A stretch of DNA of 64,000 nucleotides from Myxococcota bacterium. GTDB lineage: Bacteria; Myxococcota_A; Polyangia; Polyangiales; Houyiibacteriaceae. The translations under genes and the position numbers were made by a program. The DNA is taken from NCBI GenBank assembly GCA_039028875.1, contig JBCCHE010000002.1, positions 5,212 to 69,211 of the forward strand, read 5' to 3'. Of the stretch, positions 4,646 through 34,011 are shown in pieces (positions within the stretch are counted from its first letter, which is position 1; each line of letters opens with the position of its first letter). The notes beneath the pieces are model-generated. The model was not told where the DNA came from. It saw only the letters and a program-made list of their open reading frames with translations, and did no database searches.

Positions 4646-4888
4646 ATGTTTCGATGTGAGCTTTGCAACCGAGTGTCACAGCCAGGAGAGCGTCAGATCA
4701 AGGTCGTCGTCGAGCGGCGCCCCGCCGAGTACCCCAGCCGAAGCAAGGCGCAGCGTTCCAACGCCAGCGGCCGTGGGAAGTTTCGGGACGATCCAGGTGG
4801 CGCCGGTTACGAGATCGTCAGAGAGAAGATTGGCTGCGCAAGCTGCATCGACGATCACATCGACAAAGAACCCGACGAGACGCTCTAA
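4646..4888 (+). CDS. Small hypothetical protein with two CxxC pairs (zinc-ribbon-like)
   Basis: 80-aa ORF MFRCELCNRV...KIGCASCIDDH. An AGGAG sequence lies about 6 nt upstream of the ATG. The gene follows feoB on the same strand. Confidence 0.45.
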   Translation: MFRCELCNRVSQPGERQIKVVVERRPAEYPSRSKAQRSNASGRGKFRDDPGGAGYEIVREKIGCASCIDDHIDKEPDETL

Positions 4889-4915
4889 CGCCAGAGGACT
4901 CACGAAGAGACATCC

Positions 4916-9486: not shown

Positions 9487-9828
9487 TCAACCGTCTTGGC
9501 GAAGAAACACAGCGAGCCAAACGGTGGGCTCGTCGGGGCTCGTCCATTCAACGCGATGACGTGTGTGAGCCGGAATGAACACGGCGTCGCCAGGGCCCAG
9601 CTCCGTGAGGTCTGCCTCGCTTGGGTACCGCAGTGCCGCCGTTCCCCGCAAAATCAACACCCACTCGTGCTCGTCCTGGTCGTACCAAAACCCATCCGGC
9701 GACCGATGACCCGTCGACACGATTCGTTCGATCCGCACCCCAGGTAGGCGAAGTATCTCGTCGACCCCCTCCGCATCGAGCCTCGTCGGAACGTGGTGAA
9801 GAAGGTGATCGACCTTACGCTGCGTCAT
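9487..9828 (-). CDS. Cupin-domain protein
   Basis: 113 aa with WYDQDEHEWVLILRGTAAL...GDAVFIPAHTRHRVEW, the two-motif cupin barrel pattern. Confidence 0.75.
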   Translation of the reverse strand: MTQRKVDHLLHHVPTRLDAEGVDEILRLPGVRIERIVSTGHRSPDGFWYDQDEHEWVLILRGTAALRYPSEADLTELGPGDAVFIPAHTRHRVEWTSPDEPTVWLAVFLRQDG

Positions 9829-9909
9829 TCTCGATCTCCTAGTCTGCGATGCTCAACGGATCGAAAGCCCCGACACACTCGAACCTCACGCCGCTCGGGA
9901 CCTGAGCCC

Positions 9910-19940: not shown

Positions 19941-21554
19941 TCAGGTGGTCGCCGGCTCATCGAGGAGTTCGGGTTCCCCGGGCGCCAGCGTGGTCTGCTC
20001 GAGGCTCTCTTCGAACCCCGGAAGTCGAGCCGCGGCGAGCCCGAGCAAAAGGGCCGACAGCAGAAAGCCGAGGTCGACGTAAGCGGTGTGACTTGCTTCG
20101 GGGAGCTTGAGCGCCGCAAACGGTCCGATGCCAGTCACCATGAAGCCTATGAGGGGTGCGATGGCGAGCCCGGCCGCCCCCAACCCGAAGAGCAGGCGCA
20201 AACATCGACCGAGGGGCAGGAGCGCGCCGCCGATCATGGTCGCGACCAGCGACCCGAAAAACGCAAGGGTCATCGCCGTCCAAACGCGAGGCCCCTGCGC
20301 GAAACCCCAGGCAGCAATCGTCGCCCCAGCGGCGACTGGCAGCCCTGCGCAGCCTCCTAGGAGCGCACGGGCCACGCGCGCACCCTTCGGCGACCGCTCG
20401 GTGTTTCGTATCGCCCAGAGCCCAAAGCCCAGTCCAGCAAGTACGCAGGTCAGCAGCCCGAGCAGCATCCAAACGAGCTGCGTCGCGAAGCCAAAGAGGT
20501 TTCCGAAGTGAAGTGGCCCAATCCAGCGCAGCACTTCGCCGCCGACGGAGGGCTTGGCGCCGAGGACGGCCTTTTCGGCCAAGAAGCTTCCGTTGTGTCC
20601 GTCGTAGACGAGACCACGATTGCTGAGCGCATAGCCCGGAACGAAGACGCTCACCACCACGTGCGCTTCCTTGCCTCCCCACTCGTTCAACTGAAGTCGC
20701 CCGATCGACGTTCCGGGCGCACGTTGGCGTGCATCATCGATCATGGGCTGCACCACCGCCACCGCCTCTGACTCGGAGACCCCATAGTCGCCCTTGACGA
20801 TTGCCATCATCTGTTCCTGGTCACCCCCGAAGGCGACGACGATCATTACGGGAATCAGGATGGCGCCCGCAAAGCTGAAGAACGCGCCGGTCACCGACAG
20901 AATGAACGTGAAGGGCATGCTCCACGCCCCAATCAGTGTGTGCATATCGCCGAGCCACTGCCGCATGCTCTTGCGCGGCGGCCGAACCAGATTGCCTCGG
21001 CGCGGCCAATGGACGTAAAGCCCGGTCCCGACGAGGAGCAGAAGCAAGATGGCGATGACCCCCGTTAGAAGGAGGCCGAGCTTGCCGTCGACCAGCAGCC
21101 TCACGTGAAGCTGCACGAAGAATCGCTCTAGGCTGCTCCGAGGCTCAGACTTGACGCGGTCGCTAAATGTGAAGCGCTCTGCGCGCAGAATCGCCCCCGT
21201 GGCTGGGTCGATATCTACATAGTCGGCTCGCTTGTCGTCGTCCGGAATCGAGAAAGAGAGCGTGAGCGCCCCGGGCGCGGAGCCAACCCTGATGTCCCGG
21301 GTACCGAAGTCACCTTCGTACTTGGCGGCGAGCGCATCCTGCGCCGTCACGACCGCGCGATCGATGAAGCCCGGGGGTAGATCGGCAATTGAGGGCGCCG
21401 GTCGGTCACGGGACGCCCACCCGTCGAGATCGTGTCCAAAGACGACGAGCGCGCCGGTAAAAAAGACAATCACGCCAAGGAAGGCCGAGGCGATGCCAGC
21501 GGAACGATGGAAAAGGTAGAACACCTTGCGCCTGCCGCTCTGGCGCCGACTCAC
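19941..21554 (-). CDS. PepSY-associated TM-helix protein (PiuB/FoxB-like membrane protein)
   Basis: I place the start at GTG (complement of 21554-21552), overlapping the upstream stop as GTGA. Motifs include FYLFHRSAGIASAFLGVIVFFTGALVVF, MRQWLGDMHTLIGAWSMPFTFILSVTGAFFSF and LRWIGPLHFGNLFG. Confidence 0.75.
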   Translation of the reverse strand: MSRRQSGRRKVFYLFHRSAGIASAFLGVIVFFTGALVVFGHDLDGWASRDRPAPSIADLPPGFIDRAVVTAQDALAAKYEGDFGTRDIRVGSAPGALTLSFSIPDDDKRADYVDIDPATGAILRAERFTFSDRVKSEPRSSLERFFVQLHVRLLVDGKLGLLLTGVIAILLLLLVGTGLYVHWPRRGNLVRPPRKSMRQWLGDMHTLIGAWSMPFTFILSVTGAFFSFAGAILIPVMIVVAFGGDQEQMMAIVKGDYGVSESEAVAVVQPMIDDARQRAPGTSIGRLQLNEWGGKEAHVVVSVFVPGYALSNRGLVYDGHNGSFLAEKAVLGAKPSVGGEVLRWIGPLHFGNLFGFATQLVWMLLGLLTCVLAGLGFGLWAIRNTERSPKGARVARALLGGCAGLPVAAGATIAAWGFAQGPRVWTAMTLAFFGSLVATMIGGALLPLGRCLRLLFGLGAAGLAIAPLIGFMVTGIGPFAALKLPEASHTAYVDLGFLLSALLLGLAAARLPGFEESLEQTTLAPGEPELLDEPATT

Positions 21555-21832
21555 GAAACGAACCTTCCGATCACGGGGACCAGCGCGGCCACGGTGATGG
21601 CGCCCGTCATGATCCACGCGCGACGCCGCCGTTGAGCACCGAGGAGCAGCATAAAGGCCAACGCCCATACGAGCGGAAACGCCACGACCGCGAAGATCAC
21701 GTGATCGATTCGAGCGGGCCCTTCGGGCAGAAACGTCGTCATGCTCGCCGAGACGATGAGCGCGACGACGAACGTCGCCAGGAGGATCAGCACCTCCCGG
21801 AGCCATCGCCGACGTGGGGCTTTGGAGTTCAT
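21551..21832 (-). CDS. Small 3-TM membrane protein translationally coupled to the PepSY gene
   Basis: MNSKAPRRRWLREVLILLATFVVALIV... has three hydrophobic helices. The stop overlaps the next gene's start codon. An alternative start lies at 21871. Confidence 0.5.
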   Translation of the reverse strand: MNSKAPRRRWLREVLILLATFVVALIVSASMTTFLPEGPARIDHVIFAVVAFPLVWALAFMLLLGAQRRRRAWIMTGAITVAALVPVIGRFVS

Positions 21833-21919
21833 CGCGTTTGCACCTTCGGCATCACGATCGCATCTGATCATAGCGGGTTACCGAACGCGCCTGGCAAAGT
21901 CAACGCCATTGGACCGGGT

Positions 21920-21953
21920 TTCGGCGAGCGGTCGCCTTGGTTCGGTGAGCGGT
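21920..21953. promoter_or_regulatory. Two 13-bp direct repeats 21 bp apart; candidate LytTR-regulator binding site
   Basis: TTCGGCGAGCGGT (21920-21932), an 8-nt spacer, then TTCGGTGAGCGGT (21941-21953); 12/13 identical. The reverse complement is ACCGCTCGCCGAA. The site lies between the PepSY operon start and the kinase start. Confidence 0.45.
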
Positions 21954-22039
21954 ATCGGCTCCGTGCCTGACCCATGCCGATAGAGAGTGAGCCATCCTAC
22001 CCGTAGCCGACTTCCCGCGTTCATGGGACCCTACGGTCG

Positions 22040-23200
22040 ATGCCGCAACCGTTCTTGTCGAGCGAAACCTCGCTGCTACGCCAGCCACGGTTCTGGCTCG
22101 TCCAACTCGCCGGATGGCTGCTCATCCAACCGCTCTACTTCCGACATCAGATCGAGACGGCGTTCCGAGAAGGACTCGGGAGCCTGGCCGTCCTCCTGAC
22201 GGCATCGAGCTGCGTGTTGGCCATCGCGTGTTCGTCAGGTCTGGCCGCCGTCTATCTAAGGATACCACCGAGCTGGCTGACGGGTGTGAGAGCCATCCCC
22301 GTCGCGCTTGGGCTTTCGCTTCTGGCGTGCGTGCCGTGGGCCGTCGGCATCGAGCTCGTGGCGCGCGCGACCGCGTTTTCTGAAGACGGGGCTGAAGGCT
22401 TTGCCTATCGGTTCTTCTTCATCGGCTCGATCCTCATGGTCTGGTGGAGCGGAGCCTTTCTTTGGCTCACGCTCAGCGCCCGAGTGACGAAAACGCAGGC
22501 GCGCGCCTTGCGCGCCGAGGCGCTCGCTCACGAGGCCAAATTGATGGCGCTCCGCGCCCAGCTCAACCCCCACTTCCTGTTCAACTCTCTCAACTCGGTG
22601 GTCGGTCTCATCGGAACCGATCCGGGGCGCGCGCGCCAAATGGTGCGGGACCTCGCGGGGCTGTTGCGACGTGCCCTCGATTCGACCAAGGCGGAGCTGA
22701 CCACGATCGGCGACGAGCTCGATTTGCTCGCGCAGTACCTTCGATGCGAGTCCGTCCGGTTCCGCGAACGCCTCGAAGTGCGGGTCGACGTCCCCGATCA
22801 CGTTCGGCAGCATGCGATTCCGAGCATGCTGCTGCAGCCCCTCGTGGAGAACGCGATCAAGCACGGAATCAAGGGGACGCGCGCACTAACACTGGTCATC
22901 GTGGGTCGGTTCACGACCGATCGCACCGTGGTCATCGAAGTGCGAAATACCGGCCGTCTCGCGGGTCCGACTGCGCCCCTGCGCACCCCCTCCGCCAGGC
23001 CAGAAGAGGATGACCCGCCCGGGACTGGCTCGGGGCTCCGCATCGTTCGCGAACGGCTCGCGGCGACCTACCCCGAAAGCGGAAAGCTCGACCTGTTTGA
23101 GGACGACGGCTGGGTGGTGGCGCGCGTCAACTACGAACCCGAAGAAGCCGACCCAGCGCTTCCGAGGCTTCAGGCTACGAACGCGCGAGGCGCCGCGTGA
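22040..23200 (+). CDS. LytS/YehU-type sensor histidine kinase (His_kinase PF06580-like + HATPase)
   Basis: N-terminal ~150-aa multi-TM region. The phospho-acceptor region is LRAQLNPHFLFNSLNSVVGLI. ATPase motifs are LLQPLVENAIKHGI and GTGSGLRIVRERL. Confidence 0.88.
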   Translation: MPQPFLSSETSLLRQPRFWLVQLAGWLLIQPLYFRHQIETAFREGLGSLAVLLTASSCVLAIACSSGLAAVYLRIPPSWLTGVRAIPVALGLSLLACVPWAVGIELVARATAFSEDGAEGFAYRFFFIGSILMVWWSGAFLWLTLSARVTKTQARALRAEALAHEAKLMALRAQLNPHFLFNSLNSVVGLIGTDPGRARQMVRDLAGLLRRALDSTKAELTTIGDELDLLAQYLRCESVRFRERLEVRVDVPDHVRQHAIPSMLLQPLVENAIKHGIKGTRALTLVIVGRFTTDRTVVIEVRNTGRLAGPTAPLRTPSARPEEDDPPGTGSGLRIVRERLAATYPESGKLDLFEDDGWVVARVNYEPEEADPALPRLQATNARGAA

Positions 23201-23940
23201 CGCTGAAGGTTCTGGTGGTCGACGACGAGTACTTGGCGCGAGTCGCGCTGATCGATCTGCTTCGTCCCTACGAAAACGTCGACGTCGTTGCCGAGGCCGA
23301 CTCCGTGCAGAGCGCTGCGACGCACATCCTCGAACACGACCCCGACGTCATCTTTCTCGACATCGAGCTTCCCGACGGCAACGGTTTTGACTTGTTCGAC
23401 AGGGTGGACGTCCGGGGACACGTGGTGTTTCAGACCGCTTACGGTGAGCACGCGCTCAGAGCCTTCGAAGTCAACGCACTCGACTACTTGGTGAAGCCCG
23501 CGGAGCCGAGTCAGATCGATCGGGCGCTCGCCCGAGCTCGCAGCGCTTCTGCCGCTAGTGCGGCCAGCGTCGCAGCTACCGCCCTCGGTCCTGAAGATCG
23601 AGTTCGACTGCAAGAGCGCAGGCGCGTTCGGTTCTGTCGTGTTCGCGATATCGCCTACATTCGGAGTGCCGACGACTATGCGGAGGTCCACCTCGCCAAC
23701 GGGGAAGTGGCCCTGGTACCGGAACGACTCCAACACTGGGAATCGCGACTGCCCGACTCCTTCGTGCGCATTCACCGATCGACCCTGATCAACGCAGACC
23801 TGAGCGAGGAGATGCTGCACGAGAATGGGGCGTGGCAGGTCCGGCTTCACGGATGTTCCGATCGACTGACGGTGAGTCGACGTCTCGCACAGCAGGTGAA
23901 GGCCAAGATCCTGGGACGTCGGGGCGAAGGGCTTCGATAG
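23197..23940 (+). CDS. LytR/AlgR-family response regulator (receiver + LytTR DNA-binding domain)
   Basis: GTG start overlaps the kinase stop. Receiver motifs are VLVVDDE, IFLDIELPDGNGF and ALDYLVKP. The LytTR domain is IAYIRSADDYAEVHLANGEVALVPERLQHWESRLPDSFVRIHRSTLIN. Confidence 0.9.
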   Translation: MTLKVLVVDDEYLARVALIDLLRPYENVDVVAEADSVQSAATHILEHDPDVIFLDIELPDGNGFDLFDRVDVRGHVVFQTAYGEHALRAFEVNALDYLVKPAEPSQIDRALARARSASAASAASVAATALGPEDRVRLQERRRVRFCRVRDIAYIRSADDYAEVHLANGEVALVPERLQHWESRLPDSFVRIHRSTLINADLSEEMLHENGAWQVRLHGCSDRLTVSRRLAQQVKAKILGRRGEGLR

Positions 23941-24094
23941 CAGGCTCGCACCGCGTGGCTACGCCATCGTAGGCGAGCGAGCTTGGCAATCCGCGCGAAG
24001 CGATGAACTTCGCAAGGACCCACGAATGGCTCGCGACCGGTCTCGGTTGTCGTGGCAAGGAAACCCACAACACGGTCCGACAGACGATCCATCG

Positions 24095-24149
24095 ACCGCT
24101 CGCCGAGTGAGGGCGACCGTCTGGCGAAACGACGAGTCGCTTGTCGTCC
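24095..24149 (+). promoter_or_regulatory. Phased direct repeats upstream of the RND operon; candidate LytTR binding sites
   Basis: ACCGCTCGCCGAG (24095-24107) matches the reverse complement of the 21920 repeat at 12/13 positions. ACCGTCTGGCGAA (24116-24128) lies exactly 21 bp downstream and matches 9/13. A third core, CGCTTGTCG, lies at 24138-24146, 20 bp further on. Confidence 0.4.
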
Positions 24150-24213
24150 CCGCGTGGTAGTCGAAGAGGACCGGGTCCTGACCCGCGCTCCTGGTTGAAC
24201 GAATGACGGGACC

Positions 24214-25443
24214 ATGCTGAGACGAGCGAGCCAAGGAAGAACCGGCGCCTCTCACCACAGCCGGAGACCGCGCTCAGGCACAAACGCCTATTCGACGGGT
24301 CGAATCGACGTGAGGTGCCGCGGTTGGCAAGTCGTGCTCTGCGTGGTCGCAGTCGGGTGCGCGGAGCGCGCGCCCGCATCGTCCGAGCCCTCGGCACCCC
24401 CGGTGCATGCGGAACGAGCGGCCATCACCACCGTGGTTCCGGAGTCGATCGCAACGGCCGAGATCCTCGCTTTGCGTGAATCCCTATTACGCGCGGAGGT
24501 GCCGGGACGAGTCGTGGCCGTTCGGGTTGAAGCGGGTGATTCGGTCGAAAAAGGGGACGTTTTGGTGCGCTTGGACGTCGTGCGAACCGAATCGGCGGTC
24601 GCAGCCGCTGGAGCCTCGGTGGCCCAAAGCAAGGCCCGCTTCGAGCAAGCCCAACGTGAGTTCGCGCGAACGGAAGTGCTCGTGAAGGCCGGGGGACTCG
24701 CCGACCAAGCCCTCGACGATGCGAGAAACGAGCTTCGGGTCACCTCCGCCGTGCTCGACGCATCGCGTGCTGATGCCCGCCTTGCAAGACGAGGCCTTAC
24801 CGAGGCCGTGATTCGCGCCCCCTTCAGCGGCACGATCGTCGAGCGACACGTCGAGCTCGGCGAGTACCTAGCGCCAGGCAACGACTTGGTCCGCATTGCC
24901 GACACGAGCGTGCTCAAGGCGCGGGTCCTTCTCGACCCACGTGAGGCCCTCGGGCTTTCGGTTGGCGCGAAAGCCATCGTGGAGGCCTTCGCGCGGCCTG
25001 GCGAGCGCTTCGCGGGTCGGGTCGTCCGGGTGGGCAAAGTCATTGATCCAGACACCCGAAGGCTTCCCGCGGATGTGGAGCTCGACGACACGGAGGGCCG
25101 ACTGCTTCCTGGACTCGTCGGTCGCTTTTGGATCGCCACCGGTCCGCCGCAACCGTGGGTGACTTTGCCGAGGAGGGCCATCTTCGAGCGTTTCGGCCGA
25201 CGACACGTCTACGTCATCGAAGATGGGATAGCACGGCGGCGCGAGGTCTCGCTCGGCGCTCAACGAGACGGGCGCGCACAAATTCGGGACGGGGTTCGCG
25301 CGGGGGAGTGGGTGGTCACCGACGGGATGATGCGCGTCGTCGATGGTGCGCCCATCCGACGGGTACCTGCGACGCACCCGCAGTCACCGCGACCAAGAGA
25401 TGATTCTCTCTCTGGTTCGAGCCGGCGCGCGGACTCGCCATGA
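24214..25443 (+). CDS. RND efflux periplasmic adaptor (membrane fusion protein)
   Basis: Lipoyl-like hairpin LRAEVPGRVVAVRVEAGDSVEKGDVLVRLD, coiled-coil region, then beta-barrel and MP domains. A lipoprotein-like VVLCVVAVGCAE suggests the true start may be the GTG at 24310. The stop overlaps the RND start (ATGA). Confidence 0.85.
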   Translation: MLRRASQGRTGASHHSRRPRSGTNAYSTGRIDVRCRGWQVVLCVVAVGCAERAPASSEPSAPPVHAERAAITTVVPESIATAEILALRESLLRAEVPGRVVAVRVEAGDSVEKGDVLVRLDVVRTESAVAAAGASVAQSKARFEQAQREFARTEVLVKAGGLADQALDDARNELRVTSAVLDASRADARLARRGLTEAVIRAPFSGTIVERHVELGEYLAPGNDLVRIADTSVLKARVLLDPREALGLSVGAKAIVEAFARPGERFAGRVVRVGKVIDPDTRRLPADVELDDTEGRLLPGLVGRFWIATGPPQPWVTLPRRAIFERFGRRHVYVIEDGIARRREVSLGAQRDGRAQIRDGVRAGEWVVTDGMMRVVDGAPIRRVPATHPQSPRPRDDSLSGSSRRADSP

Positions 25444-28400
25444 GTCCGGCCGGGTTCGCGGTCAGACAACCGGTCTTCGTCAACCTCGTCGCCATCTCGA
25501 TGGCGGTGGTCGGAGGCCTGATCTTCTATACGATGGACCGCGAGTCGCTTCCGACCGTACCGACCGGCTGGGGCGGGGTCGAAACGGTCTACGCTGGAGC
25601 ATCGCCAGAAGAGATCGAACGCCTCATCACGATGCCAGTCGAAAACGCCGTCGCCCAACTCGACGACATCGAGGAGATCTGGAGCGAATCCCGGGAAGGC
25701 ATCTCGTGGGTCTACTTCAAGCTCAACCCGGGCGTGACCAACGTACCGCAGGCCATCATCGAAGTCGCCAACGAGGTCAATCGCGTCGATGACCTCCCCC
25801 TCGATGCCGAAAGACCCCACGTCCACGAGTTCAAAGTCGACCGCCCGACGCTATGGGTCGCAGTACGCGGGGATGTCAGCGAGTCGATCGTCAGGCGAAT
25901 CGGAAGAGACCTAGCGGACAAAATCGAACGTCTGCCTGACGTCGCCGGCACCTGGAGACAGGGTGTCCGCGACAGAGAGCTCCGGGTGGATGTCGATCCC
26001 GATCGGCTTGCTGCCTACCGGCTTCCGCTCACCGCTGTCACGGAGGCGCTTCGGCAGCGAGGTGCCAACGTTCCGGCTGGAACCACGGACAACGCGCGAG
26101 GCGATGTCCACTTGATTCGAGGCATGACCCGAGTCGATACAGTCGATGAGATCGAGCGCGTCGTCGTTCGACCGAGCCCGCGGGGTGGTTCGGTCCGCGT
26201 CCGCGACGTCGCAGACGTGCAGGACACCTTCGCCCCGGGCGCGCTCAGCAGCCGGATGAACGGCGAGCCCGCAATCGTGATCACCGTCAAGAAGGATGAG
26301 CAGGGCGACAGCCTCCGAATCAGCGAAAGCGTCCACAGAGTCATCGACGAGTTGGCGCCATCCCTTCCGAAAGGCGTGACGGTTGAAGTCTTTGGCGACG
26401 TCGCGCATTCCGTGAACCGGTCGCTCACCCTCCTCTACGCGAACGCGGCAGCTGGGCTGATCCTCGTCCTCGCCCTGCTCTGGTTCTTCATCGGTGCGCG
26501 AAACGCGACGATGGCGGCGCTCGGGCTGCCTGTATCCCTGGCCGGCGCCATCGCCGCCATGGACGCGATGGGGATCACGATCAACATGGTCTCCTTGCTG
26601 GCGCTGATTCTCTGTCTCGGGATCATCGTCGACGACGCGATCATCATCATCGAGAACATCTACCGACACATGGAGGAGGGGCTCTCGCGCCGAAAGGCCG
26701 CGATCGTCGGCACCCGAGAAGTGTTCTGGCCTGTCGTCTCTTCGACGCTCACCACGTGGGCGGCCTTTTTGCCGATGCTCCTGATGACCGGGACGCTCGG
26801 AAAGTTCTTTGCCATCATCCCGAAGGTCGTTGTGGCCTCGCTGGCCGCTTCGTTGATCGAGGCGATGTTCGTGCTGCCGAGCCACATGGCGGACTTCGGC
26901 AAGCTCGAGCGCCGCCGACAGGATGGCGTTCCTGAGACGCGCGCGCAGCGAATCGGTCGCCGCGTGTTGCTCGCCTACGAACGAACGCTACGCGGTGCCA
27001 TCCAGCACCGGCGGGTGGTGGTCGGCGTCGCGTACGCCCTGTGCATCGGACTTGTCACCGGGATTTACACGACGAAAGACACCGTACTCTTCAATGAGGG
27101 CGACGTCGACATGTTCGACGTCCGCGTCCGGCTACCGACCGAGACCTCCAAAGAAGACACCGAGGCCTTCCTCTCACAAATGGAGGCCCAGATCCTCGTG
27201 CTCGAAAATCCCATCATCGACGATACGTTGGCCGTTCGAGGAATGGTACGAACGCCCAAGGGGACCGAGCGCGGTGACCACACAGGGACGATCTCCGTGT
27301 TCCTCGCTCCGGTGCAGTACCGGGACAGTGGCCGCGCGGGCGAAGATGCCCTCTCGCAGGTCGACGCCCTTTTCAAGGACCTCGTCGGACCCACGAGCCT
27401 CGACGTCGTGGCGATTCGTCAGGGCCCGTCGGGCGACCCCCCGATCACGGTCCGAGTCGTCGGCGACGACTACGACCGCCTGATCGGGCTCGCCGAACAA
27501 GTCCTCGTCGAAATACGAAACCTCCCAGGCACCCGGAACGAACGGCACGACTTCCAGCTCGGCAAAGAGGAACTCAAGGTGACCGTAGACGAGCAGCGCG
27601 CCGCTCTGCATGACCTGACCGCCACCGAGGTGACCGCATGGCTTCGAAGCGCCTTCGGAGCCACCGCCGCGGCCACCCTTCAAATGAACCAAGAAGAGAT
27701 CGACATCGTAGTGCAACTCGATGAGAAGGCGCAGCGCGACGCGGCGACGATCGCGACCCTTCGAATGATCACGGACTCCGGGGCGGACCTCCAATTGCAA
27801 GAAGTGGCGGAGGTGATCCCTGGGCGTGGACCCGGGGTGATCCGCCGCTTCGAACGGAAGCAGGTCGTGACGGTCCGCGCGAACATCGACTCGAACGTGA
27901 CCAACATGGGCGAAGCCAACCGGCGCTTGCAGCGTCGGCTGGCTCCCCTCTTGGCCGCCAATCCAGACGTCGAATTCAAGCTTGCGGGGCAGTTCGAGGA
28001 AGCTCAGGAGTCACTCGACTCGCTGTTCCAAGCGTTCGTCGTGGCGATCTTGCTGATCTACACCATCTTGGCGACTCAGTTTCAGAGCTTCTCACAGCCG
28101 CTTGTCGTCATTACGGCCGTCCCGCTTTCCCTGATCGGCGTCTCAATCGGGTTTTTCCTGGACGGTCGACCGATTAGCTTGATCGCGCTGGTCGGCGTGG
28201 TGGGCCTTGCCGGAATTGTCGTCAACGACTCTCTGGTCCTCGTCGAGTTCATCAACACGAGGCGACGAGGCGGTCTGTCGTTGGATGAGGCCATCGTCGA
28301 GGCCGGGAAACTGCGGGTGCGCCCGATCCTCCTGACCAGCGTCACCACGATTGCGGGCCTCATTCCCGTCGCGCTGGCCATGAGTAGCCTTCCGTTTCTC

Positions 28401-28634
28401 GCGCCGATGGCGCAGGTGGTGGTGTGGGGGCTCGCGTTCTCGACGGCGCTGACGCTCTTCATTGTGCCTTGTCTCTACCGGGTCGACGTCGATGTGTCGG
28501 CGCGGTTGTCATCCACTTTGGCACCTGTGACGCAATGGCTGACCGATCCGGGCGTCGCGGTCGTGGATGACGGTCCCGACGAACACGAATCGCAGGCAGC
28601 GCCGCGGTTCCCGGACCCCGCGAAGGAGGGATGA
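25440..28634 (+). CDS. RND-family efflux transporter permease (AcrB/HAE-type)
   Basis: 1064 aa. It begins FAVRQPVFVNLVAISMAVVGGLIFYTM. It shows a duplicated 6-TM plus large-loop architecture. Other motifs are LLALILCLGIIVDDAIIIIENI and GLAGIVVNDSLVLVEFI. Confidence 0.93.
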   Translation: MSPAGFAVRQPVFVNLVAISMAVVGGLIFYTMDRESLPTVPTGWGGVETVYAGASPEEIERLITMPVENAVAQLDDIEEIWSESREGISWVYFKLNPGVTNVPQAIIEVANEVNRVDDLPLDAERPHVHEFKVDRPTLWVAVRGDVSESIVRRIGRDLADKIERLPDVAGTWRQGVRDRELRVDVDPDRLAAYRLPLTAVTEALRQRGANVPAGTTDNARGDVHLIRGMTRVDTVDEIERVVVRPSPRGGSVRVRDVADVQDTFAPGALSSRMNGEPAIVITVKKDEQGDSLRISESVHRVIDELAPSLPKGVTVEVFGDVAHSVNRSLTLLYANAAAGLILVLALLWFFIGARNATMAALGLPVSLAGAIAAMDAMGITINMVSLLALILCLGIIVDDAIIIIENIYRHMEEGLSRRKAAIVGTREVFWPVVSSTLTTWAAFLPMLLMTGTLGKFFAIIPKVVVASLAASLIEAMFVLPSHMADFGKLERRRQDGVPETRAQRIGRRVLLAYERTLRGAIQHRRVVVGVAYALCIGLVTGIYTTKDTVLFNEGDVDMFDVRVRLPTETSKEDTEAFLSQMEAQILVLENPIIDDTLAVRGMVRTPKGTERGDHTGTISVFLAPVQYRDSGRAGEDALSQVDALFKDLVGPTSLDVVAIRQGPSGDPPITVRVVGDDYDRLIGLAEQVLVEIRNLPGTRNERHDFQLGKEELKVTVDEQRAALHDLTATEVTAWLRSAFGATAAATLQMNQEEIDIVVQLDEKAQRDAATIATLRMITDSGADLQLQEVAEVIPGRGPGVIRRFERKQVVTVRANIDSNVTNMGEANRRLQRRLAPLLAANPDVEFKLAGQFEEAQESLDSLFQAFVVAILLIYTILATQFQSFSQPLVVITAVPLSLIGVSIGFFLDGRPISLIALVGVVGLAGIVVNDSLVLVEFINTRRRGGLSLDEAIVEAGKLRVRPILLTSVTTIAGLIPVALAMSSLPFLAPMAQVVVWGLAFSTALTLFIVPCLYRVDVDVSARLSSTLAPVTQWLTDPGVAVVDDGPDEHESQAAPRFPDPAKEG

Positions 28635-28637
28635 GTC

Positions 28638-30044
28638 GTGCGAAGCTTCCTGACAGTTCAACGATGGCTGCTATGGGCCTGCCTCGCATGCATGCTGTGC
28701 ATAATGACGCCTGTCGCCGCCCAAGACCAGCCCGTGAGACCGGAAGTGTCGCGCGAAAGCCCCCCCTTCCCTTCGGGAGATGACGCAGCGACCCGCGGCC
28801 TGAGATCCCTCTACGTTCCCGGTGGACTGACCTCCGACGAAACGGTCAGACGAACCCTCGCGACGTCACCCGACCTCGAACGCACCCGTGCGCTCGTCGC
28901 GGAAGCCAAGGGCGCTTCTCTTCGGGCGATCGGAAGCTTGATTCCCCGGCTCGATCTCAACGCGTCGTACACACGGTTCAGCCGCGTGTTCCGTCCCCCG
29001 CAGTTCCCGCTCTTCTTGGACAACTTCTCGACCGACGCCACGCTGGGCTACTCGTTGACTGGCTCTCTCGCGGAGGCACTTCCAAGCTACCGCGCCGCCA
29101 AGAAAGACAAAGTCGCCTCGCGACACCAAATCGAGGCCGAAACCAACAACGTCGCATTCTCGGCACGCGAAGCCTACTACGAGTTCGCACGCTCGAAGGC
29201 AGCCCTTGGCGTCGCGCTGAAGACGTTGGAAGAAGCGACTTCGCAACGACAAGAGACCGAATCCTTGGTGGCCGCTGGAGCCGCCCCGCGTGTCGATGCG
29301 ATGAGGACGCAGGCGCAGGTTTCCGCGGCACAGGTATCCGTTTCGCAAGCAGAACTCGCGCTCGCCGTTGCGCGGCGAACCTTGCAAACCCTGATGCATG
29401 TGGACTCGGTGCCAACGCTCGGCGAGGACCTCTCCCGGCCCGTCGTTGGAGTCCCGACCGAGTCACAGGAGGCGCTCGAACAACGCGCGCTCGCCGAGCG
29501 ACCGGATTTGAAGGCCTTGCGGACCGCTGTGCAGGCAACCGAGCATCAAATCAGGGCTGCCCGTGGAGGCGCCGCACCCGACTTGCTGATCACCGGCACC
29601 GCCCAATACATCAACCCGAACCCGCGCGTCTTCCCGAACGAGGCGCGCTTCCAGGCGACCTGGGACGCGGGGGCGTTGGTCACCTGGTCCCCGAGCGACA
29701 CCTTCATCGCCGCCGGCCAGGCGAAGCAGCGAAAAGCCGAGCTCCGTCGTGCGGTCGCCGACATCATCGCGCTCGAGGACGCCATCAAAGTCGAAGTCGC
29801 CGAGGGGTACCATGGCATCTTTCAAGCCGAGGCCGCCTGGCAATCCGCACGAATCGGCCTCCAAGCCGCCGCCGAAACCTACCGAATCCGACGCGCACAG
29901 CTGCGCGCCGGCGCCGTCAACACCACCGACCTCCTCCAAGCCGAGGCCGAACTCACCCGCGCCCGCCTCGACGTCGTCGATTCCGCTATCGGGCTGCGGA
30001 CCGCCAAGGCGACGCTGCTGCGAGCGATCGGGGTGCAGCCTTGA
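28638..30044 (+). CDS. TolC-family outer membrane efflux protein
   Basis: Signal peptide ends at ...TPVAAQD. The sequence has two OEP repeats with long coiled segments (AEAKGASLRAIGSLIPRLDLNASY..., AARGGAAPDLLITGTAQY...). Confidence 0.85.
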   Translation: MRSFLTVQRWLLWACLACMLCIMTPVAAQDQPVRPEVSRESPPFPSGDDAATRGLRSLYVPGGLTSDETVRRTLATSPDLERTRALVAEAKGASLRAIGSLIPRLDLNASYTRFSRVFRPPQFPLFLDNFSTDATLGYSLTGSLAEALPSYRAAKKDKVASRHQIEAETNNVAFSAREAYYEFARSKAALGVALKTLEEATSQRQETESLVAAGAAPRVDAMRTQAQVSAAQVSVSQAELALAVARRTLQTLMHVDSVPTLGEDLSRPVVGVPTESQEALEQRALAERPDLKALRTAVQATEHQIRAARGGAAPDLLITGTAQYINPNPRVFPNEARFQATWDAGALVTWSPSDTFIAAGQAKQRKAELRRAVADIIALEDAIKVEVAEGYHGIFQAEAAWQSARIGLQAAAETYRIRRAQLRAGAVNTTDLLQAEAELTRARLDVVDSAIGLRTAKATLLRAIGVQP

Positions 30045-30070
30045 CCCTGGGAGCCAGCCGTCGACCGCTG

Positions 30071-30099
30071 CCCGCAACTAGCGATTCCCGCAACAGCGA
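30071..30099 (+). repeat. Short tandem direct repeat upstream of the membrane LytTR gene
   Basis: CCCGCAACtAGCGA (30071-30084), tt, then CCCGCAACAGCGA (30087-30099). It ends 37 nt before the ATG at 30137. Confidence 0.3.
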
Positions 30100-30136
30100 C
30101 TGGCCGCGCGGTTGAGGTCGTGGGACGCTCCGCGCG

Positions 30137-31036
30137 ATGACTTCTTTCACCGCGTCGATTCTCTCCCAGCACGAGCCGAGGTCGCTTCTACACCAATCGC
30201 GTTTCTGGGCGGCGCAGCTCGGCGGCTGGCTGCTTGTCGTTCCCTTTTACTTTCGGGATCTGATCCAGGAAGGGCTTCGCAACGGGCTCGTCTTGCTGAG
30301 CGTCACCATGGTGACGACCAGTTGGATCGCGGTCGTGGCCCTCTCGACGGTGCTGGCCGCGGCATACCTCCGAATGTATCCTCACTGGCTCCGTGGCATC
30401 CGAGCGATTCCGGCGGTGCTCGCGTTGTCCTGTGCGGGCGCCCTGCCCTGGACGGCGATGCTCATCTTTCTCCTTCGGAGCGGTCAGTCGAACCCCTCGG
30501 CGTGGGGGGACTACGCCCCGTGGTTGCTGTTCCAGACAACCGTCCTCCTATCGGCATGGAGCGGAACGTTCCTCTGGTTCCTGAGACGCAGCCGCCAGGA
30601 GCCCGGGCCCGCCAGACGTCCGGACGTGGAGGACTCCGCGTCTCGCTGGAGGTCCGACAGCGACGCCACCCAGGGCCGCTGGAGACCAAACGATCGCGTT
30701 TGCCTCAAAGAGGGAAAGCGCATGAAGTTTTGCGTTGTTGGGGAGATCGTGTTCATCCAGGCGGCTGGGGACTACACGGAGATCCACCTGGCTGATGATC
30801 ACGTGGCGATCGTTCGACAGCGGCTCGTGTACTGGGAGTCCCGCCTGCCGGAATCGTTCGTACGAATTCATCGCTCGACGCTCGTCAACCTCGAGCGCAG
30901 CGACGAGCTGGTCTACCTGGACGGCGCGTGGCGTTTCCGTCTCCGTGGGCTTTCGGAACCCGTCGCGGTGAGCAAGCGTTTCGAGCAATCCGTCATCGCC
31001 AAGGTGACCGGTCAAGGGGGCAAGGTCTCGGTTTAG
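30137..31036 (+). CDS. Membrane-tethered LytTR-domain protein (multi-TM sensor-like N-terminus, no receiver domain)
   Basis: The N-terminal ~150 aa are clearly homologous to the N-terminus of the kinase at 22040 (RFW..QL.GWLL..P.YFR, YLR..P.WL.G.RAIP, W.SG.FLW). The C-terminal LytTR domain is IVFIQAAGDYTEIHLADDHVAIVRQRLVYWESRLPESFVRIHRSTLVN. Confidence 0.8.
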   Translation: MTSFTASILSQHEPRSLLHQSRFWAAQLGGWLLVVPFYFRDLIQEGLRNGLVLLSVTMVTTSWIAVVALSTVLAAAYLRMYPHWLRGIRAIPAVLALSCAGALPWTAMLIFLLRSGQSNPSAWGDYAPWLLFQTTVLLSAWSGTFLWFLRRSRQEPGPARRPDVEDSASRWRSDSDATQGRWRPNDRVCLKEGKRMKFCVVGEIVFIQAAGDYTEIHLADDHVAIVRQRLVYWESRLPESFVRIHRSTLVNLERSDELVYLDGAWRFRLRGLSEPVAVSKRFEQSVIAKVTGQGGKVSV

Positions 31037-31044
31037 GTCGAAAA

Positions 31045-31094
31045 CTCGTCGCGGGAAGCCGAACGCTCGTCGCAAGAGGGCTCACGCTCGTCGC
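31045..31094 (+). promoter_or_regulatory. Three direct repeats with exact 21-bp periodicity; candidate LytTR binding sites upstream of lipoprotein pair P3-P4
   Basis: CTCGTCGC occurs at 31045, 31066 and 31087. The extended units are aaaaCTCGTCGCgg, aACGCTCGTCGCAAg and cACGCTCGTCGCAAt. The array begins 9 nt after the LytTR gene stop and ends 147 nt before the P3 ATG. Confidence 0.5.
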
Positions 31095-31240
31095 AATCGA
31101 GTCTCGTGGATGGACCCGCGTGCTAGCGTCCGGCCGCCTGAATGCGTTTCAGGTCATGCGAAAGCAGCGAATCGCCGTAGCGACCAATCGCTCTATCACA
31201 AACGGCACTCTCACGTGCGGCGAAGACAAGGAGTTTCCGA

Positions 31241-32581
31241 ATGCTTGCGAGCGCAGAACGAACAACGCACGGGGGATGGCGACTCATCGCAGCCCTCGGC
31301 TTCGGCCTGGCCATGTTGGGGTGCGGAGACAGCACACCGTCAGGCACGGGCGGCTCCGGAGGCGGCGCAACCGGCGGTTCAGGAGGAGTGGGGGCCTCTG
31401 GCGGAACGGGAGCCTCCGACGGCGGTGGGGGCGCGGGTGGCACGCTCAGCCAAAGCGGCGGAGCTGCACTCTGCAGTCTCACGGGATTCGGGCTTCCGGG
31501 AGGGCCGACGGGGTTCGTCCGCGTCTTGTCCGAGGCCGAGATCGAAGCCGGCGGTGACATCGACGCCACGGACAACGGCATCGAAGTCGGTGGTGGGGTG
31601 TCGTGTGCGGTCTGGAGGAACTCGGTGTATGCCGCGAGCTTTCAAAGCCCGACGATCACGCGCTACGATCTCATCGAAGGGGAGCTCGTCGAGGGTGACA
31701 CCGTGAGCTTCATGAACTTTGGGGTCGTGAGCCTCGCCGGGTTGTCGTCGCAAATTCAGGTCTTCTCCGACACGAAGGCCTACTTTTTCGACCCGCAGTT
31801 CGCACAGATCGTCGTGTGGAATCCCACGACGATGACCACGGTCGAAGCGATCCAGCTGACTGGATTCGACGCGCCGCCAGGGACCGTGCTTTCGCGGGTA
31901 CGGGCCGGACGGATCGACGATCGACTCGTCCTCTGGTCCACGTACGTCGATGACCAAGGGTTTAGTGCCCCAACGAGTGTATTTGCGTTCGTCGATCCGG
32001 AGACCGACGAGTTCGTCACCGACACGGTGGACACCTGCGGAGGTCTGATCAGTGAGTTTGTGACGACCACCAACGGAGACACCTACATTGGATCGAGCGC
32101 CGCCGATGCGATCAATCATGCGCTCGGGTTCGAAGGAACCTTCCCGCCGTGCATCGTTCGGCTGCGGGCCGGGGCGACCGAGGTCGACGCCACGTTTCTC
32201 GGCGACCCGAACGCGCTCACCGGCATCGGCCCCACGGGTGGCCCCCTCGCGGGCTCGGGAGACGCGGGCTTCTTGGTCGCCTACGACGAGAGCACGATGC
32301 CGCTCGACCCACTCCGTACCGGAACCGAACATACGGCGCTCGAGAACTGGCTCGTTTATCAGGTCGAACTCGGGTCGACCACCCCTGGAACACGGGTCGA
32401 GGCGCTTCCCGCCGGCCAGGGCGTCGGCGGAACGACGTCCTTCGACGGCCGCGGCTTCCTCACTCGAACCGCACGTGATTTCAGCGGCACGACCTTCTTC
32501 GACCTCTCGCAGACACCGGTCGAGGAAACCTACCGATTCAACGCCGCCGTCGCACTCTTTGCGAGGCTCGGCGCCGAGTAG
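31241..32581 (+). CDS. Uncharacterised lipoprotein, paralog family member P3
   Basis: Lipobox GFGLAMLGCGD followed by a Gly/Ser-rich linker. Family blocks are TITRYDL, KAYFFDPQFAQIVVWNP, DTCGGLISEF and PCIVRLRAGATEVD. Confidence 0.8.
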   Translation: MLASAERTTHGGWRLIAALGFGLAMLGCGDSTPSGTGGSGGGATGGSGGVGASGGTGASDGGGGAGGTLSQSGGAALCSLTGFGLPGGPTGFVRVLSEAEIEAGGDIDATDNGIEVGGGVSCAVWRNSVYAASFQSPTITRYDLIEGELVEGDTVSFMNFGVVSLAGLSSQIQVFSDTKAYFFDPQFAQIVVWNPTTMTTVEAIQLTGFDAPPGTVLSRVRAGRIDDRLVLWSTYVDDQGFSAPTSVFAFVDPETDEFVTDTVDTCGGLISEFVTTTNGDTYIGSSAADAINHALGFEGTFPPCIVRLRAGATEVDATFLGDPNALTGIGPTGGPLAGSGDAGFLVAYDESTMPLDPLRTGTEHTALENWLVYQVELGSTTPGTRVEALPAGQGVGGTTSFDGRGFLTRTARDFSGTTFFDLSQTPVEETYRFNAAVALFARLGAE

Positions 32582-32700
32582 CGTCGTTGGCAGGACGCGG
32601 TCACTTGCAGACCGGCAACAACGGACGGTTCGGTCGATGACACCGACCGAAAGACCTACGAGCAATTGCAAGTCATTTTCATTAGGCTAGCCTGCTCGAG

Positions 32701-33930
32701 GTGAAATTCGTTTGTATCCTCCTGCTTCTCGGGTTGGCGGCCTGCGGGGATGGCACCGACGCGACCACGGACACCGACCCCGCACCGGATCCCGAGTCCG
32801 ATGCGCAGGCCCAGTATCTCGTCGGGGGTGTCGTTTACGCGCCCGAGGGTCCGTTCGCCTACGGCGTCATCGTGGACGAGCTGACGCTCGACGTCGAAGT
32901 GGACCTCGAAACGTCGGGGATCTTCCCCGGCCTGCCGACCATCGGCTTTCCCGACGAGCCGAATGGCACGTTCTACGTCGGCCTCGTAGAAAGCCCGCGG
33001 ATCATCCGCTACCACGTCGACGAAGAAGGAACACTCACCGAAACGGGCGAGCTCAGCGTACTTCCTTTTGGACAAATCTCTGCCGGCGGATCCATCGTGA
33101 TCATAAACGAGTCGCGAGCCTACTTCTTCAGCGGCCTCAACCTCGACCTCGTCGTGTTCGACCCCACGGAGATGGTGCTGCTCGAGCTCATCGAGCTCGA
33201 CATCAAGACGCCCGAGGGCGGACAGAGCTACTTCAGCTACACGCCCGCGAGGGACGGAGATCGCATCGTCATCACTGCGAGCCACGTCCGCGCCGACGTC
33301 ACGACGAGCCCAAACTCGCAAGCCATCTTCATCGATGCGTTGACTGGCGAGGTCGAGTACGACGACCTCGAAGGATGCGGCGGCTTCGTCGAGCATGCGA
33401 AGGACGCCGAGGGCAACCTCTTCTTCTCCACCTTCCCGCGACAGTCGGCGATGAGGATTGCGGGGTTAGCGGGCGATCCTGCGTGCCCAGGGTGTATCGC
33501 GCGCATTGCGAAGGATGCGTCTCGTTTCGACACACAGTGGATCGACCTGGTGGGCCTTGCCGGTTCGCCCGCCGGATCGCTCGCTCAGGGACCGGGGAAC
33601 ACTTCGTACATCATGGTGTACGACGACGAAGAGACTCCCGTCACCCAAGACAGCGCCCTCATCCTTCCGACGATTCCGAGCTGGTCGTACGCGGCAATCG
33701 ACCTGACCAACCCGACGACGCTCACCCCGGTGCCGGGCCTGCCGACGAGCGCGGGCGTGGTAATCAGCTTCTCGGTCGTCGAGGGTGATGCGCAGACGGC
33801 AACGCCGTTCATCGGAATCTCGCAGGGCGATTTCGCAGGCACTGACCTTTACGACATGAGCGATCCCTCGGCGCCGGAGTTGCGAATGAGGCTGCCGGGC
33901 CTCGCGTCGGGCGCGCTTCGGCTTAGGTAA
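32701..33930 (+). CDS. Uncharacterised lipoprotein, paralog family member P4
   Basis: GTG start; MKFVCILLLLGLAACGD. Family blocks are RIIRYHV, RAYFFSGLNLDLVVFDP, EGCGGFVEHA and CPGCIARIAKDASRFD. Confidence 0.8.
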   Translation: MKFVCILLLLGLAACGDGTDATTDTDPAPDPESDAQAQYLVGGVVYAPEGPFAYGVIVDELTLDVEVDLETSGIFPGLPTIGFPDEPNGTFYVGLVESPRIIRYHVDEEGTLTETGELSVLPFGQISAGGSIVIINESRAYFFSGLNLDLVVFDPTEMVLLELIELDIKTPEGGQSYFSYTPARDGDRIVITASHVRADVTTSPNSQAIFIDALTGEVEYDDLEGCGGFVEHAKDAEGNLFFSTFPRQSAMRIAGLAGDPACPGCIARIAKDASRFDTQWIDLVGLAGSPAGSLAQGPGNTSYIMVYDDEETPVTQDSALILPTIPSWSYAAIDLTNPTTLTPVPGLPTSAGVVISFSVVEGDAQTATPFIGISQGDFAGTDLYDMSDPSAPELRMRLPGLASGALRLR

Positions 33931-34011
33931 CGACCGCGCCTCGACGGCCAGAACTGCACGAGTGGCGAGCGAACACACGGATGGAAGGCGGACTATCCTT
34001 GTTCGGCCAGT

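Follow-up and report, generated by a model that had tools for sequence, protein, structure and literature searches.

Organization of the locus

The 64,000-nucleotide stretch analyzed here (the window; contig JBCCHE010000002.1 of the Myxococcota bacterium assembly GCA_039028875.1) carries on its forward strand, in this order, a histidine kinase (HK) and response regulator (RR) gene pair, an efflux operon encoding a membrane fusion protein (MFP), a resistance-nodulation-division (RND) pump and an outer-membrane efflux protein (OEP), a gene starting at position 30137 that encodes a LytTR protein with transmembrane (TM) helices, and two genes for XusB-like lipoproteins (Table 1). The 30137 gene is the main subject of this work. 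Its product joins a membrane module like that of HK to a LytTR domain like that of RR, and comparison of the sequences makes it probable that this protein is a membrane-anchored LytTR activator that works without a phosphorelay, descends from a duplicated hk-rr operon and acts on the neighboring lipoprotein gene. On the same grounds, the gene that it switches on is most likely the lipoprotein gene at 31241 and not the efflux pump.

Table 1 Features of the window. Positions are those of the window; DHp, dimerization and histidine phosphotransfer domain; REC, receiver; ORF, open reading frame; PWM, position weight matrix score.
Feature	Position	Strand	Basis or remark
Fused membrane LytTR regulator, 299 aa (1-154 four-TM sensor module; 155-185 shortened linker; 186-299 LytTR)	30137..31036	+	ORF; PF04397; AlphaFold2 topology
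Histidine kinase (HK), 386 aa; four-TM module, DHp, ATPase	22040..23200	+	Pfam PF06580
Response regulator (RR), 247 aa; REC and LytTR	23197..23940	+	Start overlaps hk stop by 4 nt
Three predicted LytTR sites, at 31040, 31061 and 31082	31040..31097	+	Core [AG]CTCGTCGC; PWM 8.6, 17.5, 13.0
Extended -10-like TGCTAGCGT	31121..31129	+	39 bp after start of nearest operator site
Two predicted sites, GACCGCTCGCCGAGTG and GACCGTCTGGCGAAAC, upstream of RND operon	24094..24130	+	PWM 16.3, 10.4
-10-like TGGTAGTCG	24155-24163	+	
Two predicted sites, TACCGCTCACCGAACC and GACCGCTCGCCGAAAC, toward small-ORF/PepSY_TM operon	21918..21954	-	PWM 17.2, 20.1
MFP-RND-OEP efflux operon	24214..30044	+	Pfam; predicted target of HK-RR pair
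MFP gene	24214 (or 24403)-25443	+	Pfam
RND gene	25440-28634	+	Pfam
OEP gene	28638-30044	+	Pfam
XusB/BtuG-like seven-bladed beta-propeller lipoprotein, 446 aa	31241..32581	+	Lipobox LGC; predicted direct target of 30137 product
Second XusB-like lipoprotein paralog, 409 aa	32701..33930	+	Lipobox LAAC; 27% identity to 31241 product (tblastn)
PepSY_TM protein	19941-21554	-	PF03929 E = 3e-51; gene call of matching Logan contig L002
106-aa membrane ORF	21551-21871	-	Overlaps PepSY_TM start by 4 nt; no family assignment

A membrane module and a LytTR domain are each used twice

The N-terminal regions of HK and the 30137 product align without a gap over 145 aa at 40% identity (E = 5e-31 with compositional adjustment). 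A preliminary description of this DNA had proposed that the two regions are homologous and had named hydrophobic compositional bias as the explanation that might undo the proposal. The Smith-Waterman score of the two modules (280) lies far above that of global shuffles (35 +/- 6; z = 40) and of shuffles in 10-aa blocks that keep the hydropathy profile (47 +/- 11; z = 20), so the likeness of the TM modules is not compositional and the two are true paralogs. The LytTR domains of RR and the 30137 product, also described as close paralogs, show 46% identity across 144 aa (E = 6e-41) and 52% within a 113-aa core. PF04397 is the sole Pfam domain of the 30137 product, with 53.2 bits against a cut-off of 22.6 at residues 196-284, and scores 62.4 bits in RR. 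RR further contains a REC domain (70 bits) with D55 and K100 present, its nearest NCBIfam models, BtsR and LytR, both falling below cut-off, and HK matches PF06580 with 79 bits, its H-box NPHF lying at residue 176, and HATPase_c only weakly (22.9 bits, below the cut-off of 26.4). Pfam gave no match to PF06580, HATPase_c or REC in the 30137 product, and together with the predicted topology this bears out the earlier view of a membrane-tethered one-component protein that lacks a receiver. The four-TM module itself is matched by no Pfam or NCBIfam model; HK has no match to PF07694 (5TMR-LYT), and the 30137 product, with four helices and not seven, has none to PF03707 (MHYT).

An AlphaFold2 model of the 30137 product built on 17 family members (pLDDT 75.6) places TM helices at residues 21-48, 52-79, 87-116 and 120-154, followed by a disordered segment at residues 155-178 and then by the LytTR beta fold. 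The modeled LytTR domain has the ten-stranded AgrA-type beta fold; superimposed on 3d6w and on the LytTR domain of AgrA, it gives target TM-scores of 0.79-0.84 and an rmsd of 2.1-2.4 A (Foldseek). A phmmer search of this domain against PDB sequences gave one marginal match only. By the positive-inside rule for Arg and Lys, the N-terminus, the loop between TM2 and TM3 and the C-terminal part are cytoplasmic, with both termini inside, and the periplasmic loops of the module are only 10-15 aa each. Such tiny loops point to an intramembrane or partner-coupled sensor and not to a periplasmic ligand binder, and from this topology we infer that the sensor module would work within the membrane or via a partner. 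The cytoplasmic TM2-TM3 loop is strongly conserved (YLRMPPRWLTGxRAIP), and together with the minimal periplasmic loops it invites the speculation that the signal is the state of the membrane or a partner protein.

Evidence for a deletion that joined kinase and regulator

A full-length search with the 30137 product recovered 17 full-length relatives of 41-80% identity, all from metagenome assemblies, and other searches added the fused members P0040, P0042, P0044, P0046 and P0101, for a family of ~22 proteins; the genomic context of relatives was taken from loci found by exact-protein look-up (designated here by L numbers, the proteins by P numbers). When 1.84 billion representative proteins were searched exhaustively with HMMER and a two-module profile, only 23 clusters emerged, which comprise 15 PF06580 kinases, four LytTR proteins and, for the remainder, fragments; the nearest named kinases are annotated as Myxococcota metagenome-assembled genomes. 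Scans of GTDB genomes and JGI metagenomes gave generic LytTR matches only, the fused family not being among them, and a word-indexed homolog search that used just the N-terminal 166 aa gave no match, missing even the window's own protein.

The relation of this family to two-component pairs was examined with virtual chimeras made from four hk-rr pairs, in which HK(1-167/178), ending at the Lys or Arg of ...ALAHEAK nine residues before the H-box, was joined to RR(100/101-end), beginning at the Pro of ...DYLVKP, to give proteins of 314-325 aa. All 22 fused proteins can be aligned with these chimeras over the whole length, at identities of 50-64%. P0040, P0005, P0015 and P0101 need 0-1 internal gap columns; the window protein needs 22, all within the linker, so the linker of the window protein was shortened later. 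The end-to-end alignment identifies the fused family as HK(1-167)::RR(101-247), and a joining of these two parts by deletion is strongly supported at the level of sequence. What the fused proteins lack is everything from HK residue 168 to RR residue 100, a stretch that holds the phospho-His, the ATPase and, with the receiver Asp, four-fifths of the receiver. P0005 matches HK residues 3-153 at 59% identity (E = 7e-56) and RR residues 88-244 at 57% identity without a gap (E = 2e-49), the latter match spanning receiver helix alpha5 and the REC-LytTR linker. The linker of many relatives reads ...RVRKTQARVLRAEALAPEAKP..P...DRAL..., with the general form ...RVxKTQARxLRAEALAxEA(K)P..P...DRAL..., so that the fused linkers hold remnants of both the start of the kinase dimerization (DHp) helix and receiver helix alpha5.

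The corresponding nucleotide sequences of the intact pair in the window are GCCGAGGCGCTCGCTCACGAGGCCAAA (AEALAHEAK) at the presumed hk breakpoint, 22514-22540, and GTCAACGCACTCGACTACTTGGTGAAG (VNALDYLVK) at the presumed rr breakpoint, 23470-23496. The two breakpoints have a common 'xxALxxxxK' register and a GC[GA]CTCG microhomology, the implied deletion being ~950-962 bp, and this microhomology could favor the deletion, perhaps repeatedly. The fused genes also retain the 5' region of hk-clade kinase genes, which consists of CTAGC, 13-15 nt, TCATGGGACGCT, 8 nt and ATG within a wider element, CGTCC[TG][GA]CTAGC[AC]G, seen in the window at 22000-22039 and 30100-30136 and at L091:8565-8612, L006:2520-2568 and L095:3200-3249. 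In front of the 30137 gene itself this element reads CTGGC in place of the -10-like CTAGC, which may weaken the gene's own promoter.

In neighbor-joining trees, the fused proteins group with the window-type kinases P0062-68 in one clade of the sensor half (72.5% bootstrap) and with the RRs cognate to P0062-68 in one clade of the LytTR half (75% bootstrap). Both clades are nested in the broader radiation of PF06580 kinases and REC-LytTR regulators, and the two half-trees are congruent. Comparison of the 30137 gene with its orthologue in L003 gave a dN/dS of 0.17 overall, 0.20 in the TM module and 0.11 in the LytTR domain, alongside 0.16 for the kinase and 0.10 for the regulator. The 30137 gene is functional and under purifying selection, and it is not decaying.

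Other rearranged forms of the same parts were observed. L092:1278-1895 encodes a 205-aa truncated derivative with TM4, the linker (…RAETLAHEAGSSSPERVDRAPARA…) and LytTR only, followed by a two-site array and then an XusB-family gene; it is a single-pass variant or else a copy in decay. P0048 (632 aa), P0050 (758 aa) and P0071 (619 aa) contain a tandem double four-TM module and the PF06580 core in one polypeptide; the second H-box of P0071 is NPGF, its His lost, and the first of P0048 is NPHS. The PF06580 kinase family with this module seems prone to fusions. Among 78 LytTR ORFs sampled from metagenomes, 73 have a receiver and three are TM-LytTR proteins. These three, of 262-269 aa with 2-4 predicted TM helices and no receiver, occur in L018, L028 and L084 and show no similarity to the module of the 30137 product, and their unrelated membrane parts indicate that the membrane-tethered LytTR architecture arose more than once.

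Operator arrays and promoters

Characterized LytTR operators consist of a 9-bp repeat and a 12-bp spacer with an ACCGCTT-like core (PMC6193735, PMC11347149); that of BrsR is ACCGCTTAT-12 bp (PMC6193735), and those of CoxC and RcoM contain three repeats (PMC11347149). Direct repeats spaced by exactly 21 bp occur in the intergenic regions beside the regulators studied here. Sites of this kind were sought with a 16-nt PWM built from 17 sites, all outside the window, with the consensus GACCGCTCGTCGAAAC; a repeat pair of L092 with 19-bp spacing was excluded from the matrix. The scan of the 64 kb returned four phased pairs; 100 first-order Markov simulations gave 0.22 on average and never more than 2. 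All four pairs lie in three intergenic regions, at 21954/21933 on the reverse strand and at 24094/24115 and 31040/31061/31082 on the forward strand, with a modal spacing of 21 bp. These are the window's only three 21-bp-phased LytTR arrays, and they coincide with repeats that the preliminary description had placed near 21920, 24095 and 31045. In silico, they conform to the pattern of ~9-bp direct repeats with 10-13 bp spacers near a promoter.

The 31040-31097 array lies directly 3' of the 30137 gene, and its three phased copies are kept in L003 and L005. Arrays nearly identical to that at 24094-24130 follow the RR gene in L089 and L091, and 21-bp-phased arrays are conserved in nine other loci. 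In three loci that had not contributed to the matrix, the PWM predicted arrays just 3' of fused regulator genes, each on the strand of its regulator gene: in L093 (twice), in L094 (before a TonB-dependent receptor gene) and in L095 (before a PepSY_TM operon). The target of the 21918-21954 array is less certain and is either the PepSY_TM operon or hk. A scan of 21500-34200 for consensus sigma-70 promoters found nothing, and promoters were placed by means of a conserved TGNTAN3T element. At 12 of the 14 related promoters this element follows the start of the nearest site by 39-40 bp, and no -35 element was recognized at the 31121 promoter. A site 39-40 bp before an extended -10 would take the place of the -35, which is the geometry of an activator.

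Arrays near both regulators have a core of ACCGCT[CT][GA] type and 21-bp phasing in common, and to this extent the earlier suggestion that the two LytTR domains read the same operator stands. It fails at 3 of the 12 core positions, at which the two operator sets of this lineage differ (GACCGCTCGCCGA vs GAACGCTCGTCGC). Each variant is kept in its own orthologue, a pattern that speaks for insulation at least as much as for competition. Cross-talk nevertheless has room in this arrangement, given the near-identical cores and the lack of a terminator before the 30137 gene.

No phased array was found upstream of the 30137 gene with the PWM, and the repeat pair at 30066/30082 was rejected as an autoregulatory site of this gene, its 16-bp spacing being wrong and its score below the PWM threshold. 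In L091, an identical two-site array (CACCGTTCGTCGCATA / TACCGTTGGTCGCATA) occurs at 3352-3388 and at 4879-4915, one copy standing before an XusB-like gene and the other before a 79-aa ORF that is followed by an AhpC/Redoxin gene; the second L091 array hints at a wider regulon.

Genomic neighborhood and candidate target genes

HK-RR and the 30137 gene do flank the RND operon in this window, as the preliminary description stated. Its functional reading of the arrangement, as regulators forming a trio around the RND pump, is not borne out, the arrangement not being conserved in orthologous loci. In L089, which is orthologous (proteins 77-87% identical), the series HK-RR-MFP-RND-OEP is followed by an unrelated hydrolase gene. 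The orthologue of the 30137 product (P0002, 80% identical) is encoded with a 31241 orthologue in L003, on another scaffold of the same assembly, with no OEP gene upstream. The position of the 30137 gene beside the RND operon is a lineage-specific rearrangement. Two fragments lie just 5' of the kinase gene of L089, a 75-aa LytTR fragment at 9172-9399 (reverse strand) and a fragment resembling the C-terminus of PepSY_TM at 9503-9880 (forward strand), and they look like the remains of a decayed regulator and PepSY cassette.

Across eight fused-regulator loci, the neighbors that recur are XusB-like lipoprotein, TonB-dependent receptor (TBDT) or PepSY_TM genes, with the operator array directly 3' of the regulator. 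A 31241-type lipoprotein gene (425-460 aa) adjoins the fused regulator in L003, L005 and L006 and twice in L093, a TBDT gene does so in L094 and a PepSY_TM operon in L095. The fused regulator has no two-component system nearby in L003, L005, L006, L094 and L095. Intact HK-RR pairs with the same module also adjoin XusB-like lipoprotein genes, in L091 and L092.

The lipoprotein at 31241 was modeled with AlphaFold2 from a four-paralog alignment (pLDDT 68), and its best Foldseek match is Bacteroides fragilis XusB (9hqk, E = 4e-13), BtuG cobalamin-binding lipoproteins coming next. A profile of the lipoprotein family matches XusB in the PDB (9hqe) with E = 2e-7 and DUF4374 proteins with ~4e-5; the Pfam model DUF4374 scores 16-21 bits, below its cut-off of 25, in some family members only. 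The other two XusB/BtuG-like paralogs of the window lie on the reverse strand at 9910-11124 and ~11205-12410; all four have a lipobox and 25-27% mutual identity, and a LytTR array precedes only the 31241 gene. The 32701 gene, which may be co-transcribed with 31241, has no array before it in the PWM scan. On the other side of the locus, the 106-aa membrane ORF may serve PepSY_TM or the sensors as an accessory partner, and this ORF and PepSY_TM form a possible regulon member by analogy with XusC. No TonB-dependent transporter was found among the ~35 larger window ORFs scanned against Pfam, a set that does not cover smaller or other ORFs. Farther out lie the gene of a Cys-rich secreted protein of 608 aa that weakly matches Dictyostelium-type repeats (18022-19848, forward strand) and that of a 1277-aa protein with VWD and Laminin_G_3 domains (38459-42295, reverse strand); such large secreted proteins might suit a Myxococcota-like genome.

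Proposed mechanism and alternative readings

The origin and action that we favor for the 30137 product would begin with duplication of an hk-rr operon of the 22040-23940 kind and a single in-frame deletion of ~0.95 kb, which would have joined HK after residue 167, nine before the H-box, to RR at residue 101, a Pro that follows the conserved Lys of beta5. Kept after this deletion would be the four-TM sensor module, a stub of the dimerization helix, receiver alpha5, the linker and LytTR. The fused protein would remain in the membrane while its LytTR domain, on a flexible tether, binds the 31040-31097 repeats, and dimerization through the membrane module would replace the phosphorylation-driven dimerization of the receiver. 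With the nearest site in the place of the -35, binding would activate 31241 and perhaps 32701, as the comparative geometry of operators and promoters suggests. The HK-RR pair, for its part, would use near-identical repeats to control the RND promoter (24094-24130) and probably also the PepSY_TM promoter (21918-21954). A bolder extension of this scheme, which we put forward only tentatively, is that the membrane sensor of a kinase gates the DNA-binding domain directly and without phosphotransfer, as a signal-responsive short-circuit that has been multiplied into several paralogs in each genome, one per nutrient-capture locus of the XusB-like, TBDT or PepSY_TM kind; fusion of this sort would then offer a general route to HigX-like regulators, an alternative to the 'fused LRS' (LytTR regulatory system) proposed for them. 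A further possibility is that fused proteins pair with their parental kinases through the common membrane module and so couple both pathways.

Several observations weigh against this account. The fused proteins on their own are not monophyletic in either neighbor-joining tree (bootstrap 0-4%), so a single fusion event is not proven, and recurrent fusions or gene conversion among paralogs are possible. The window protein has itself lost ~20 residues of the linker, and with them most of the diagnostic remnants, and its origin is read through its relatives, which come from few metagenomes, mostly Tara ocean assemblies (ENA) and a few from Logan (including the contig of the window). No terminator was recognized in the interval from the OEP gene to the 30137 gene, and this, together with the CTGGC variant, means that the 30137 gene is possibly transcribed from the RND promoter, which would link both systems. 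The arrays were assigned to regulators by adjacency, binding and activation being predictions, and the 21918-21954 array lacks a canonical promoter geometry.

In the leading alternative, which takes up the preliminary description, the 30137 product would be hard-wired to bypass the adjacent two-component system or to compete with it, responding through the paralogous module to the same signal at the same operators of the RND, PepSY_TM and lipoprotein promoters and forming one circuit with the pump. RR-driven read-through into the 30137 gene is conceivable where no terminator intervenes, homologous TM modules could heterodimerize, both proteins have almost the same putative DNA-contacting stretch, LPxSFVRIHRSTL[IV]N, and the operator core is common to RR-associated and fusion-associated arrays, the sets overlapping across loci. 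We nonetheless consider such a circuit unlikely. The adjacency is absent from L089 and L003, the closest orthologous loci, a fused regulator usually occurs by itself beside a target and array of its own, as in the five loci that have no two-component system nearby, the operator sets differ at the core positions described above and keep those differences in their own orthologues, and the TM modules are just 40% identical.

Less probable again is regulated proteolysis of the disordered linker, which would free a soluble LytTR activator and leave the membrane module as an anchor or anti-activator, in the manner of an LRS or of regulated intramembrane proteolysis. The linker is disordered, 10-60 aa long and fast-evolving (dN 0.31 vs 0.08-0.12 in the flanking domains), a naturally truncated form with TM4 and LytTR exists in L092, and LRS keep LytTR regulators inactive at the membrane (PMC6193735; discussed in PMC13384398). 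Yet the TM module is under purifying selection and has many invariant polar and aromatic residues as in active kinases, which is more than a mere anchor needs, and no protease gene is found among the conserved neighbors. CoxC and HigX, moreover, act while tethered (PMC11347149, PMC13384398): CoxC binds its operator from membrane fractions (PMC11347149) and the activity of HigX depends on its TM domain (PMC13384398). The proteolytic release that the preliminary description had thought a membrane-anchored LytTR protein might need is therefore not required.

The direction of evolution could also be reversed, a membrane one-component protein being ancestral and the two-component system arising from it by insertion of transmitter and receiver. 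One-component systems are reportedly widely held to have preceded two-component systems, a view associated with Ulrich, Koonin and Zhulin (2005), and the fused proteins are interleaved with the kinases P0062-68 in the trees. We judge this order of events highly improbable for the present family, since the clade is nested in the far wider PF06580 kinase and REC-LytTR radiation, the linker fragments make sense only as leftovers (the first turns of DHp ending before the H-box, and alpha5 beginning from the K-P of beta5) and the chimeras match in length and register without gaps. Evolution here would then have run from a two-component to a one-component system, opposite to the direction said to be usually assumed. 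Damage to a two-component operon might, lastly, have left the 30137 gene behind as a remnant without function, an idea which the loss of all catalytic parts, the further deletion in the linker and the truncated or fragmentary copies elsewhere (L092, 205 aa; L089, 75 aa) might encourage. It is scarcely credible given a dN/dS of 0.17, an intact reading frame in ~22 members of 40-80% identity and the conserved operator arrays and target genes beside the gene.

Comparison with known systems

The 22040/23197 pair has the same architecture as LytS/LytR, BtsS/BtsR and YpdA/YpdB, with operators of the same 9 + 12 bp kind, and both halves of the 30137 product appear to come from such a pair. The product itself has no H-box, ATPase or receiver and would be a descendant of this type, not a member of it; the window kinase in turn differs from LytS proper in having neither the 5TMR-LYT nor the GAF sensor. 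With the LRS of Streptococcus mutans (HdrRM, BrsRM), the 30137 system has in common a LytTR activator controlled at the membrane without phosphorylation and direct repeats, spaced by 12 bp, immediately before the promoter, the BrsR core ACCGCTTAT being similar (PMC6193735). In contrast to the separate downstream inhibitor gene and the autoregulation of their own operon in LRS, the 30137 product is one polypeptide with a lipoprotein gene downstream.

Membrane-tethered LytTR regulators have been characterized only recently, CoxC in 2024 and HigX in 2026, and TM-LytTR proteins of alphaproteobacteria were noted by Nikolskaya and Galperin in 2002, as far as the citations in PMC13384398 and PMC10269533 indicate. 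CoxC of Afipia carboxidovorans is an MHYT-LytTR membrane-bound single-component regulator that resembles the 30137 product in its N-terminal polytopic membrane sensor, disordered linker, C-terminal LytTR domain and lack of a receiver, in an operator of three direct repeats and in a sensor domain type also found in histidine kinases (PMC11347149). Unlike the 30137 product, which has no MHYT match and an array of activator geometry, CoxC has a copper-dependent seven-TM MHYT sensor and is a repressor whose operator lies over the -35, and no descent from a two-component pair has been described for it. HigX of Caulobacter crescentus consists of four TM helices, a low-complexity linker and LytTR (PMC13384398), and its compact four-helix membrane bundle without a periplasmic domain is, by description, like that of the 30137 product. 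HigX differs in its targets, higBA and cell-envelope genes, and in its proposed origin as a regulator fused to a membrane inhibitor, where the 30137 family appears to be a fused kinase-regulator pair.

The genes beside the fused regulators recall XusABC, the xenosiderophore utilization system of Bacteroides, which is made up of a TBDT, a surface lipoprotein of the DUF4374 type and an inner-membrane reductase with PepSY (PMC13142918). The same gene set, of beta-propeller lipoprotein, TBDT and PepSY_TM, recurs across the fused-regulator loci. The sequence likeness is marginal, however, and BtuG-type cobalamin binders match the 31241 product almost as well. The consulted passages of PMC13142918 contain no mention of LytTR control of Xus systems, and the literature was not searched further for it.

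The present locus adds a LytTR regulon, as predicted here, for XusB-like nutrient-capture genes in uncultured marine bacteria, probably Myxococcota, and it places an apparent parent hk-rr operon and its collapsed derivative 7 kb apart, with breakpoints readable to the residue, a common promoter architecture and operators that are nearly alike. Compared with CoxC and HigX, membrane tethering of a LytTR regulator is already known; what is new is a traceable descent from a two-component system and the link to loci of the XusB-like, TBDT and PepSY_TM kind.

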